From assembly GCA_000004985.1 (NCBI GenBank), contig GG739421.1: a DNA stretch of 1,446 nt, one strand, 5' to 3'. This stretch comes from Naegleria gruberi (Eukaryota). Positions 59-1,446 of the stretch are shown in pieces; within the stretch, counting starts at the first letter, position 1; each line of letters opens with the position of its first letter. A program made the translations under genes and the position numbers. Below the pieces are notes generated by a model. That model worked only from the letters and a program-made list of their open reading frames with translations. It was not told the origin of the DNA and searched no databases.

Positions 59-1078
59 TCATTTTAAATAATCAATTAAATTTAAAATAATTAAATTTTG
101 ATTATTTAAAGAAATTAAAATTTCATTTTTAGAAAATTGAATAAAATCATTAATATAATAATTTAAATCTAATTTAAATTTTAAAGTTCCATCAATATTC
201 CAAATAAAAATAAAATGATTACAAATTCCAATAATAAATTGATTAATAAATTTAATATTTTGACATTTACTTGAAATTATAATTTTAATTGGTTTACTTA
301 AATTATGAATTGAAAATAAAGTTAAATAATTAATTTCTCTACTTGAATGAATTAACCAATTATTATATTCATCTGTTGATATACTATTTATAGTAATATT
401 ATTTTCTAAAAATGGAAAATATTCATTTTCAATTATTAAATCTAAATTTAAAATTTTAATTTTATATAAACATGTAATAAATAATTTAGAATTAATTAAA
501 TTTATATTTAAAATACTTGAATCTAATTTAATTGATTTTAATAAATTTAAATCTTGATCTACCATATATAGAAATCCATTATCAAATCCAATATATAAAT
601 TATTATTAATAAAATTAATACAATTAATTATTTTTCCATTATTAATTTCATCCATATATAAATTTGGTGATAAAATTATTGATTTTTCTATATTTGTTAA
701 TAAATCTTCAATTTTAAATATTTTAATAAAATTACTTGTACAAATATAGATTGTATCTAAATTATTAATTATATTTAAAATTGGAAATGTATCTATTTTT
801 ATACTTGTTATTAATTCTAATTTTAAATTATAAATTTTAACTTGTCCAAAATCATTTCCAATTAAAATATATTCCATATTATTATTATTACTAGATATGG
901 TAGTATTATTATTAGTATCATTGGTATCATTATCATTAATTATTGTAGATATTGGTATATTCTTAATTTTTATCATACAAGTTGCTCTGATAGGTCTTTT
1001 TAATTCATCTTTTTGTATTTGATAAATTTCTTCTCTTGATGGATGAGAAAATTCTTGATTAAAAATTAGGCTTGTCAT
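59..1078 (-). CDS. Hypothetical Asn/Ile-rich protein, 339 aa; beta-propeller (WD40-like) repeat architecture suspected; intronless eukaryote-style gene. Coordinates include the TGA stop at 59-61.
   Basis: Single uninterrupted 340-codon frame (ATG at 1076-1078 as rev-comp cat; TGA at 59-61) in DNA where TAA/TAG/TGA should occur by chance about every 9-10 codons, so an open frame this long is essentially impossible without selection. It starts at the first ATG after an in-frame TAA 17 codons upstream. Codon usage is consistently AT-biased (AAT Asn, AAA Lys, AGA Arg, GGA Gly, CAA Gln, TGG Trp). The protein has repeated 'hydrophobic strand + G-x-D/N-G turn' units, for example GNDFGQVKIYNL (824-859), LYIGFDNGFLYMVD (557-598) and IWNIDGTLKFKL (170-205), about 7 units in all. 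No homology search was possible, so the fold and function assignment is inference. Confidence 0.8.
   Translation of the reverse strand: MTSLIFNQEFSHPSREEIYQIQKDELKRPIRATCMIKIKNIPISTIINDNDTNDTNNNTTISSNNNNMEYILIGNDFGQVKIYNLKLELITSIKIDTFPILNIINNLDTIYICTSNFIKIFKIEDLLTNIEKSIILSPNLYMDEINNGKIINCINFINNNLYIGFDNGFLYMVDQDLNLLKSIKLDSSILNINLINSKLFITCLYKIKILNLDLIIENEYFPFLENNITINSISTDEYNNWLIHSSREINYLTLFSIHNLSKPIKIIISSKCQNIKFINQFIIGICNHFIFIWNIDGTLKFKLDLNYYINDFIQFSKNEILISLNNQNLIILNLIDYLK
878..937 (-). repeat. In-frame low-complexity tract encoding NDNDTNDTNNNTTISSNNNN (residues 48-67). It includes a 9-bp tandem unit (plus strand AGTATCATT / GGTATCATT / ATCATT, 914-937) encoding (N-D-T)x2.7.
   Basis: Direct reading of the codons gives runs of AAT (Asn), ACT/ACC (Thr) and GAT (Asp). 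The plus-strand sequence agtatcatt-ggtatcatt-atcatt is a tandem 9-mer. Such tracts are typical of AT-rich eukaryotes (Dictyostelium, Plasmodium). Confidence 0.7.
1061..1075. repeat. Direct repeat copy A: AAAAATTAGGCTTGT (plus strand). It overlaps the start of the CDS (gene strand ATG-ACAAGCCTAATTTTT, codons T-S-L-I-F).
   Basis: 15-nt match (14/15 identities) with 1225-1239. The shared core TAGGCTTGT contains 4 G/C in a background of roughly 10% G+C, so a chance recurrence is unlikely. Confidence 0.6.
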
Positions 1079-1097
1079 ATCTTGAAGTATAAAGTTA

Positions 1098-1115
1098 ATG
1101 ATGATGGTGATGATA
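1098..1115. repeat. Imperfect trinucleotide tract ATG-ATG-ATG-GTG-ATG-ATA, i.e. (GAT)2-GGT-(GAT)2 in the other phase.
   Basis: Seen directly in the sequence. It reads (ATC/ACC)n on the gene strand. Confidence 0.5.
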
Positions 1116-1139
1116 TATTGATGTATTTAATGATCACTA

Positions 1140-1166
1140 GGTGGTGGTGATATTGATGATGAAAAT
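1140..1166. repeat. Imperfect trinucleotide tract (GGT)3-GAT-ATT-(GAT)2-GAA-AAT.
   Basis: Seen directly in the sequence. It is related to the tract at 1098-1115 and to TGATGATGAC at 1189-1198. The three tracts are in different phases and interrupted by stops, so they are not a continuous coding region. Confidence 0.5.
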
Positions 1167-1175
1167 ATTTTAGGC

Positions 1176-1211
1176 TTTTCCGAAGGCTTGATGATGACAA
1201 CTATCGGAAGA
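1176..1211. other. Candidate hairpin: stem TTCCGA (1178-1183) / TCGGAA (1204-1209), 6 bp perfect with 4 G:C. It extends to 8 bp with one G-U wobble (1177 pairing with 1210) and a T-A pair (1176 with 1211). Loop about 20 nt (1184-1203) containing AGGCTTGATGATGACAACTA.
   Basis: Inverted repeat read directly from the sequence. A GC-containing 6-mer inverted repeat is uncommon in DNA this AT-rich, but one such hit in 1.4 kb is not strongly significant. Confidence 0.25.
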
Positions 1212-1224
1212 TTTTAACAAGAGA

Positions 1225-1239
1225 AAAAACTAGGCTTGT
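1225..1239. repeat. Direct repeat copy B: AAAAACTAGGCTTGT (plus strand), 164 bp upstream (gene sense) of copy A.
   Basis: See copy A. On the gene strand it reads GCACAAGCCTAGTTTTTT. There is no ATG in front of it and stops follow in all frames, so it is non-coding. Confidence 0.6.
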
Positions 1240-1446
1240 GCTAATATTTTTTTTTGAAATTTGAAAAATAGAGAAATCATAACAATCATGTGATAAGATA
1301 TTGCCAATTTAATATGTTACTATAATAGATTTAGTATTTATTTTAGAATAATCGAAATGGATATTTATTTTTATTATTTACATTAAATATACCTTCAAGT
1401 ATTTACAAATATTGAATAATATGTTCAATAATTTCATTTGGAAGTA

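Follow-up and report, generated by a model that had tools for sequence, protein, structure and literature searches.

The window (the whole stretch of 1446 nt that was analysed) carries on its minus strand one complete gene, preceded by a leader or promoter-proximal patch that is considerably richer in GC than the gene itself and in which most copies of a short repeated word are embedded. The features referred to in this analysis are, in order of position:

59-1078, minus strand: complete coding sequence without introns, 339 aa long and ending in TGA, predicted to encode a WD40-type beta-propeller; start codon at 1078-1076
1061-1075, minus strand: copy A of the 15-mer, reading ACAAGCCTAATTTTT on the gene strand, with the core AAGCCT at 1073-1068
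1079-1260, minus strand: GC-rich patch (29.7% GC), leader or promoter-proximal, with a gene-strand composition of A67 C40 G14 T61
1097-1200, minus strand: TCATCA / CACCAC triplet runs (TGATGA six times on the plus strand), interleaved with the cores
1171-1178, minus strand: fourth core copy, reading AAAGCCTA on the gene strand, 12 nt downstream of the third in the direction of the gene
1176-1211, no strand assigned: imperfect 8-bp inverted repeat TTTTCCGA / TCGGAAGA, the 20-nt spacer of which holds the third core copy
1183-1190, minus strand: third core copy, reading CAAGCCTT on the gene strand, with TCATCATC before it
1225-1239, minus strand: copy B of the 15-mer, upstream of copy A, reading ACAAGCCTAGTTTTT on the gene strand, with the core AAGCCT at 1237-1232
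1230-1289, minus strand: upstream open reading frame of 19 codons, MIVMISLFFKFQKKILAQA, the TAG stop of which lies inside copy B

The protein encoded at 59-1078 has few recognizable relatives. Exact look-up of the open reading frame returned no record and a word-indexed protein search no match, while an exhaustive HMMER search yielded only three distant matches and a profile search only one (P0001). The sequence relatives found were exclusively uncharacterised proteins of Naegleria fowleri and of one metagenome, and searches for related loci in viral contigs, metagenome contigs and GTDB genomes found none. The best full-length structural match was THOC6 (7apk_F, TM 0.70/0.71), the WD40 subunit of the THO/TREX mRNA-export complex. 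Other WD40 chains were found at TM 0.60-0.66, and matches extend to more than 1300 generic WD40 chains. The protein modelled here is like THOC6 in its full-length fold match and in its size of approximately 340 aa, and differs from it in that PDB and Pfam searches gave no THOC6 match at the sequence level, only sub-threshold generic beta-propeller matches, and in that generic WD40 chains match its fold too. Hence, the structural comparison suggests a WD40-type beta-propeller that is possibly THOC6-like. Glycine is encoded by GGA in all seven cases (7/7), which does not suit the codon usage of Dictyostelium; Dictyostelium discoideum is an improbable source of the sequence, as is Plasmodium falciparum, since either would be expected to have given database matches. 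Two alternative genetic codes were rejected as candidates: code 6 (ciliate), the 339-codon frame being free of TAA and TAG, and code 4, tryptophan being encoded by TGG twice.

The GC content of the patch at 1079-1260 compares with 14.5% in the coding sequence (3.8% at third codon positions, GC3) and 5.2% in the 3' flank (1-58). Since neutral DNA in this setting would be expected to be far more AT-rich, the patch is probably under constraint. Its gene strand is strongly C-rich and G-poor and lacks any ATG from 1280 down to the main ATG, which is compatible with a transcribed, unstructured leader. The frame of the main gene is closed upstream of its ATG by a stop at 1129-1127, and the 19-codon upstream open reading frame would be relevant only if transcription starts upstream of 1289. 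Besides the cores, three of which lie inside the patch, and the triplet runs, further short low-copy repeats occur here; TRF reported no significant tandem repeat. The inverted repeat at 1176-1211 forms the only local hairpin in the folds, seen on the plus strand, and is not significant (whole-patch z-score -1.8). A bacterial promoter/terminator scan, which is not applicable to a eukaryote, returned nothing significant.

Inspection of the sequence confirmed the 15-nt direct repeat described in the earlier note: on the plus strand AAAAATTAGGCTTGT occupies 1061-1075 and AAAAACTAGGCTTGT occupies 1225-1239, with a start-to-start distance of 164 nt, 14/15 identical positions and a T/C transition as the sole difference. 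Read on the minus strand, copy A (ACA AGC CTA ATT TTT) supplies codons 2-6 of the 339-aa frame (T-S-L-I-F), in agreement with that note; the title given there, according to which one copy spans the start codon, needs correction, as copy A only abuts the ATG at 1076-1078. The description of copy B as non-coding is right insofar as no long open reading frame runs over it, and has to be qualified for the TAG of the upstream frame that falls within it. In an information-weighted direct-repeat search of the whole window the 15-mer pair ranked top in the real sequence, and its score was equalled or beaten in 20/100 dinucleotide shuffles. Therefore, the pair is not clearly beyond chance and, taken alone, could be a chance occurrence. 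The fixed 15-mer pattern was matched twice in 0/200 shuffles, a figure that comes from a post hoc test.

Unlike the 15-mer pair by itself, the clustering of its core, which went unnoticed in the earlier note, does exceed chance. The core (AGGCTT on the plus strand, AAGCCT on the gene strand) is represented by four copies of a single orientation within 170 nt (1068, 1172, 1184 and 1232), and no further copies exist on either strand of the 1446 nt. The extended core CAAGCCTA, with up to one mismatch allowed, retrieves the same four sites and no others in the window. Local shuffles contained on average 0.05 copies of AAGCCT, with a maximum of 2 in 2000 shuffles, as compared to the four copies observed. 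Because the motif was picked after the sequence had been viewed, the honest figure is a look-elsewhere P of approximately 0.001 and not the raw 1e-7; it corresponds to the share of local shuffles (about 0.1%) in which any hexamer with at least three G/C reached four non-overlapping copies. With three or more copies of a short word near the gene start, in excess of what composition would yield, the arrangement makes a candidate homotypic cis-regulatory site cluster. The four sites have in common the core and 1-2 flanking bases only and differ in the remaining flanks, as would be expected of binding sites and not of duplicated segments. Successive cores lie 48, 12 and 104 nt apart, spacings without helical phasing. 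Nothing relevant on AAGCCT, AGGCTT or CAAGCCT as a named motif was found in the searchable literature. A further word, TTCCGAA, was compared by eye with the consensus sequences of STAT, HSE and ETS sites and matched none of them.

The copy that lies in the gene is set apart by its codons. AGC is used for 1/24 serines and CTA for 2/39 leucines, which makes them the rarest synonymous codons of the gene, in which only 6/339 codons end in a G or C that a synonymous codon would avoid. When the whole protein was re-encoded by the gene's own codon usage, AAGCCT appeared anywhere in the coding sequence in 0.7% of trials. Residues 1-10 vary among relatives and are predicted to be disordered (pLDDT 39), so that this part of the protein may be free to carry a signal at the nucleotide level. 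The use of the rarest codons within a variable, predicted-disordered N-terminus suggests that the codon pattern of copy A reflects such a nucleotide-level constraint.

Our preferred reading, to which we give a probability of roughly 45%, takes the two 15-mers as the closest-matching pair in a homotypic cluster of cis-regulatory motifs, a cluster that would extend as far as the gene's first codons. The putative element, as read on the gene strand, would have AAGCCT as its core, CAAGCCTA as its extended form and ACAAGCCTARTTTTT as its longest version, and a WD40 gene of an extremely AT-rich eukaryote, possibly a THOC6-like gene, would carry the cluster in its 5' leader or promoter-proximal DNA. 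The core might be recognised by a sequence-specific factor, which would bind it on DNA or, should the patch be transcribed, on the mRNA leader. Despite very strong mutation pressure towards AT, selection may preserve several sites of the same orientation. The last of these in the direction of the gene would extend into codons 2-4, where the protein appears unconstrained, and the requirement for particular nucleotides may dictate the rare codons AGC-CTA and hence the residues S-L. The element could serve this gene or the neighbour across the spacer of about 340 nt. A regulatory element overlapping the start of the coding sequence had been among the possibilities raised in the earlier note, and it is favoured by the core cluster, the GC-rich leader and the rare codons, which speak for it indirectly. 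The contig of a distant orthologue (L121) carries no such core cluster, and at 31% protein identity it is too diverged for this absence to count.

The main rival to the cis-element reading, which we consider less probable though far from negligible, is that the repeat is a neutral by-product of micro-duplications, by slippage or template switching, together with chance, in a leader whose higher GC content has other causes; the copies as such would then serve no function. The outcome of the dinucleotide shuffles for the 15-mer pair is in accordance with this explanation. The same patch is filled with other short low-copy repeats and triplet runs, among them the six TGATGA words, a sign that repeats are being generated locally; spacings in multiples of 3 (12 and 48 nt) separate the three upstream cores, as in the neighbouring triplet repeats. 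However, four copies of a hexamer with three G/C in one orientation stand against it, with a look-elsewhere P of approximately 0.001. Micro-duplication also leaves unexplained why the copy in the coding sequence would persist as the two rarest codons of the gene under AT pressure, and why the entire patch would stay at 30% GC.

A more specific proposal on the regulatory side would assign the signal to the whole of ACAAGCCTARTTTTT, acting as a dual-use DNA/RNA regulatory signal placed in codons 2-6 and repeated in the leader of its own gene. The 15-mer might then bind a regulator of transcription or of translation, or act at both of its positions as an initiator-like element, and it would dictate the rare codons together with the N-terminal residues, with one factor reading both the leader and the start of the coding sequence. 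We regard this stricter proposal as rather unlikely.

It is less likely still that the patch at 1079-1260 is an unannotated small ncRNA gene or a short exon or open reading frame, of which the AAGCCT copies would simply form part. GC-rich islands in the spacers of very AT-rich genomes are a classic signature of RNA genes, and a patch at 30% GC in AT-rich surroundings fits this description. In addition, the plus strand carries several C-box-like TGATGA words, Rfam gives weak, C/D snoRNA-like matches, and the open frames of the plus strand read like protein (GGGDIDDENILGFSEGLMMTTIGRF, closed by a stop). Membership in the C/D snoRNAs takes a score at the gathering threshold as well as both a C box (RUGAUGA) and a D box (CUGA); the best Rfam match reached 19 bits as against a gathering threshold of 45 bits, with E > 2, and the D box CTGA is absent from the plus strand of 1079-1300, where the TGATGA words are present. 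ARAGORN detected no tRNA, and the fold z-scores of the two strands amounted to only -1.5 and -1.8. Frames in the patch stay open for 41 codons at most, the longest ones lack an ATG, and no Pfam match was obtained. Moreover, copy A would lie outside such a unit, within the coding sequence. Comparison by eye of the patch with U2 snRNA and with the 3' end of 18S rRNA revealed no resemblance.

The earlier note had also considered a duplication of the N-terminal part of the gene with later decay of the upstream copy, or a slide of the translation start, here taken as one from copy B to copy A. The own frame of copy B reads T-S-L-V-F and is one conservative change away from T-S-L-I-F. The similarity between the copies, however, ends exactly at the edges of the 15-mer, and gapped local alignment recovers the 15-mer alone. 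In register, the flanks agree at 17/80 positions downstream and at 20/60 upstream, no more than the approximately 36% expected from composition, and alignments of the flanks only are no better than those of shuffled sequence, 59/1000 and 999/1000 shuffles scoring as high or higher. Immediately before copy B there is AGC instead of an adjoining ATG, and its frame runs into a TAG at 1203-1201 after 12 codons. Relatives place their start at the present Met: a conserved block (HPxxxEI..Q..TC) begins approximately 9 residues after Met both here and in the full-length relative P0005, which makes the ATG at 1078 the expected start, and the orthologue on contig L121 (39% GC) begins at the equivalent Met. 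The two extra cores within the interval would be left unexplained by duplication or start shift alike. Given the sharp edges of the 15-mer, the missing ATG at copy B and the starts of the relatives, a duplicated N-terminus and a slid start are not supported, and we consider either of them very improbable. The repeat region most likely consists of regulatory DNA of an ordinary kind, with neither a duplication nor a shift of the gene start behind it.

Least probable of all is a target-site duplication around an insertion of about 149 nt (1076-1224), for instance of a retroposon that had been truncated or of some other mobile fragment. In its favour, the repeats are sharp-edged with unrelated flanks, the intervening DNA differs in composition from its surroundings and an A-run precedes copy B on the plus strand. 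Against it, the gene that is left on excision of 1076-1224 meets a stop upstream before any ATG in its frame, which means that the start codon would have to have come with the insert; the repeat search lists no convincing terminal inverted repeats at the ends of the interval, two further cores lie within the putative insert, the exact 24-mer across the start has no match in viral contigs, and the matches to the 15-mer in metagenome contigs (at least 120, at background level) are single, with unrelated flanks, none of them being AT-rich or clustered likewise.

If the cluster is a genuine cis-element, it would add a regulatory word that has no name so far, from a poorly sampled eukaryote with very AT-rich DNA, and would neatly illustrate how a signal at the nucleotide level can override an extreme codon bias within a gene's first codons. 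It would be useful to promoter annotation in AT-rich genomes and would hardly surprise specialists, because clusters of short G/C-containing motifs in AT-rich promoters are a known pattern.

Three groups of known systems bear comparison with the locus. Like a target-site duplication, it shows two short, nearly identical and sharply delimited direct repeats on either side of DNA whose composition differs; it departs from such duplications in that the insert would supply the start codon, has no terminal repeats and contains extra cores, and in that no other copies were found. Entamoeba, Trichomonas and Giardia possess Inr elements at or near the start codon, together with very short leaders. The likeness to these is that a putative nucleotide signal adjoins or overlaps the ATG and the first codons would be doubly constrained; the Inr consensus is not matched here, and the present element recurs 94-159 nt upstream, which is unfit for a single initiator. 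The G-box/CAE elements of Dictyostelium, which are bound by GBF, and the ApiAP2 motifs of Plasmodium form homotypic clusters of short, G/C-containing transcription-factor sites in AT-rich promoters. The putative AAGCCT element resembles them in presenting several G/C-containing words of 6-8 nt within about 200 nt upstream, in the way the word stands out from AT-rich DNA and in flanks that vary between copies, whereas AAGCCT/CAAGCCTA is not a described element in the searchable literature and places one of its copies inside the first codons of the coding sequence.

Both copies of the 15-nt direct repeat described in the earlier note were found in the window, identical at 14 of 15 positions and 164 nt apart. 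Copy A adjoins the start codon (ATG, 1078-1076) directly rather than spanning it, as had been proposed. The repeat and the shorter core that it contains are located as follows, the gene strand being the minus strand:

1061-1075: copy A of the 15-mer, AAAAATTAGGCTTGT; gene strand ACA AGC CTA ATT TTT, codons 2-6 (T-S-L-I-F)
1225-1239: copy B of the 15-mer, AAAAACTAGGCTTGT, 164 nt from copy A
1068: core within copy A, gene strand, tgAC-AAGCCT-AATTTTT
1172 and 1184: two further cores, gene strand, gaA-AAGCCT-AAAATAT and atC-AAGCCT-TCGGAAA
1232: core within copy B, gene strand, gcAC-AAGCCT-AGTTTTT

A fixed-pattern test, which is post hoc, gave two matches to the 15-mer in 0 of 200 shuffles. When the best direct repeat was sought along every diagonal of the window, with matches weighted by information content, the pair was the top-scoring repeat of the real window, and 20 of 100 dinucleotide shuffles equalled or beat its score, so that the two-copy 15-mer alone is not significant. 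The repeat is real but modest.

The two 15-mers are more aptly regarded as belonging to a cluster of four copies of AAGCCT, a core overlooked in the original two-copy account. Reading AGGCTT on the plus strand, it occurs at 1068, 1172, 1184 and 1232 in one orientation, with no further copy on either strand of the window, and the extended core CAAGCCTA, at no more than one mismatch, recovers exactly the same four sites. The hexamer averaged 0.05 occurrences per local dinucleotide shuffle (region 28-30% GC) and never exceeded two in 2000 trials; in a look-elsewhere test over all hexamers with at least three G/C, four non-overlapping copies appeared in about 0.1% of shuffles. Common to all four sites are only the core and one or two neighbouring bases.

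The extremely AT-rich window (1446 nt) carries a single long ORF at 59..1078 on the minus strand (339 aa, ATG start, TGA stop). Since a stop-free frame of 339 codons is impossible by chance in such DNA, this is a real gene with standard stop codons. An antisense 41-aa ORF at 897-1022 (plus strand) is almost certainly spurious. The coding sequence has 14.5% GC, a GC3 of 3.8% and extreme codon bias (Asn AAT 52/52, Gly GGA 7/7, Leu TTA 37/39). The core enters it through AGC, used for just one of 24 serine codons, and CTA (2/39 leucine codons); avoidable third-position G/C is confined to 6 of 339 codons, codon 3 among them, and when the protein was re-encoded throughout from the codon usage of the gene itself, AAGCCT appeared anywhere in just 0.7% of trials. 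As the first ten residues show no conservation among relatives and are predicted to be disordered (pLDDT 39), nothing in the protein calls for particular residues here. The simplest reading would be that the nucleotides of copy A are kept and Ser-Leu is a mere by-product; alternatively, the codon anomaly may reflect a recent origin of the stretch.

A non-coding leader patch (1079-1260) of 29.7% GC contains the three upstream cores; its GC content is twice that of the coding sequence and about six times that of the 3' flank (5.2%) or of GC3 (3.8%). No other feature of the window is as anomalous in composition. On the gene strand of the patch C is abundant and G scarce to a marked degree (A67 C40 G14 T61), and no ATG occurs on that strand between 1280 and the main ATG. 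Because neutral positions in this genome have decayed to about 4-5% GC, constraint would be the simplest account of 180 nt of non-coding DNA at 30% GC, and its composition suggests that the patch is probably constrained.

The best explanation, to which we give a probability of 0.45, is that several copies of a short cis-element (core AAGCCT, best form ACAAGCCTARTTTTT) make up a homotypic cluster in promoter-proximal DNA or the 5' leader. These candidate sites would be recognized by a sequence-specific DNA-binding factor or, should the patch be transcribed, by one that binds RNA, and the last copy would overlap codons 2-4. A regulatory element overlapping the gene start, one of the suggestions of the earlier note, agrees with the observed clustering, orientation, composition and codon anomaly, whereas factor binding and function, like the transcription start and the flanking gene served, are what we infer. 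Judged from sequence, cluster and leader are probably unexceptional cis-regulatory DNA, of mild interest for the way the cluster runs on into the first codons.

The main rival, though less likely, is a neutral origin, in which chance and local micro-duplication within a leader prone to repeats would have produced the copies. It is favored by the many TCATCA/CACCAC triplet runs of the patch, by its further short repeats and by the spacing of the three upstream cores in multiples of three. More doubtful still, the patch could be an unannotated RNA or small ORF. Rfam gave no family near threshold (best 19 bits vs a 45-bit threshold, C/D-snoRNA-like); the weak snoRNA-like matches are spurious because of TGATGA words (six at 1097-1200, plus strand, within GATGAT/GGTGGT triplet runs), and the plus strand of the patch has no CTGA D box. 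Searches of the patch found no tRNA, no tandem array, no frame open beyond 41 codons and no Pfam match for the open frames, and its folding was not significant on either strand (z -1.5 and -1.8 vs shuffles). An imperfect 8-bp inverted repeat, TTTTCCGA...TCGGAAGA (1176-1211), surrounds the third core; the folds show no other local hairpin, and this one is statistically unremarkable. A 19-codon upstream ORF (1230-1289, minus strand, MIVMISLFFKFQKKILAQA) ends at a TAG within copy B; in its frame copy A reads CAA GCC TAA, after a TGA overlapping the main ATG (ATGA).

An N-terminal duplication or a slid start, both raised in the earlier note, is very improbable. Similarity between the copies stops exactly at the 15-mer borders: compared in register, the flanks agree at 17/80 positions downstream and 20/60 upstream, no more than the roughly 36% that composition predicts, gapped local alignment (±60-80 nt) recovers the 15-mer alone, and alignments of the flanks by themselves do not outperform shuffles. 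Immediately before copy B stands AGC instead of ATG, and the T-S-L-V-F frame of this copy ends after 12 codons (stop 1203-1201); upstream, the main frame is closed by a stop at 1129-1127, and no other start codon lies between that stop and the ATG. Both here and in P0005, a full-length relative whose contig has its start at the equivalent Met, the first conserved block (HPsreEIyqiQkdelkrPiraTC) follows the Met by about 9 residues. This points to the present ATG as the expected start and leaves an older one at copy B unsupported. Least probable of all is a target-site duplication flanking an insertion of the 149 nt between the copies: excision would deprive the gene of any in-frame ATG ahead of the next stop, and the interval lacks terminal inverted repeats and holds two further cores. 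In metagenome contigs the 15-mer had at least 120 single occurrences on unrelated contigs; the matches listed have unrelated flanks and at least 22%, mostly 30-50%, GC within ±250 nt, with at most 3 AGGCTT copies in that range (2/120 loci listed) and no cluster comparable to the window's. Such occurrences are the background expected of a 15-mer in so large a collection, and they speak neither for nor against a repeat family within the source genome, which lies outside that collection.

An exhaustive HMMER search (1.84 billion representatives) returned only three relatives of the encoded protein, two of them meaningful (33-38% identity): a cluster with a Naegleria fowleri hypothetical protein and a metagenome cluster, which identify a eukaryotic, protist-type nuclear gene. 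Pfam gave beta-propeller matches, all sub-threshold. AlphaFold predicted a WD40-type propeller (pLDDT 76, pTM 0.73), whose best counterpart over the full length in the PDB is THOC6 from the human THO-UAP56 mRNA-export complex (7apk_F, TM 0.70-0.71) among >1300 generic WD40 matches; sequence-level support for THOC6 identity was not found, and the modeled protein is possibly THOC6-like. Residues 42-65 (~884-955, minus strand) form an N/T/D-rich low-complexity insert, NDNDTNDTNNNTTISSNNNN, missing from relatives and predicted to be disordered; since a degenerate (TAT)n / 24-nt tandem array (TRF 877-944) occupies the same stretch, it looks like a triplet expansion in a predicted propeller loop. 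A neighboring gene may lie at 1378-1446 on either strand: on the minus strand a frame stays open from the edge of the window as far as TAA 1380-1378 (...YFQMKLLNILFNICKYLKVYLM), and a plus-strand frame from ATG 1421 (MFNNFIWK...) runs past the window end, with the word GTATTTACA 15-23 nt upstream.

Among named elements in the literature searched, AAGCCT/CAAGCCTA was not found, and the cluster is likened to known promoter motifs by arrangement and assigned to no specific family. Clusters of G/C-containing motifs punctuate the AT-rich promoters of protists, and the AAGCCT cluster appears to be arranged in a similar way. Protists with short leaders have start-proximal core-promoter elements, which copy A, placed beside the ATG, may resemble.
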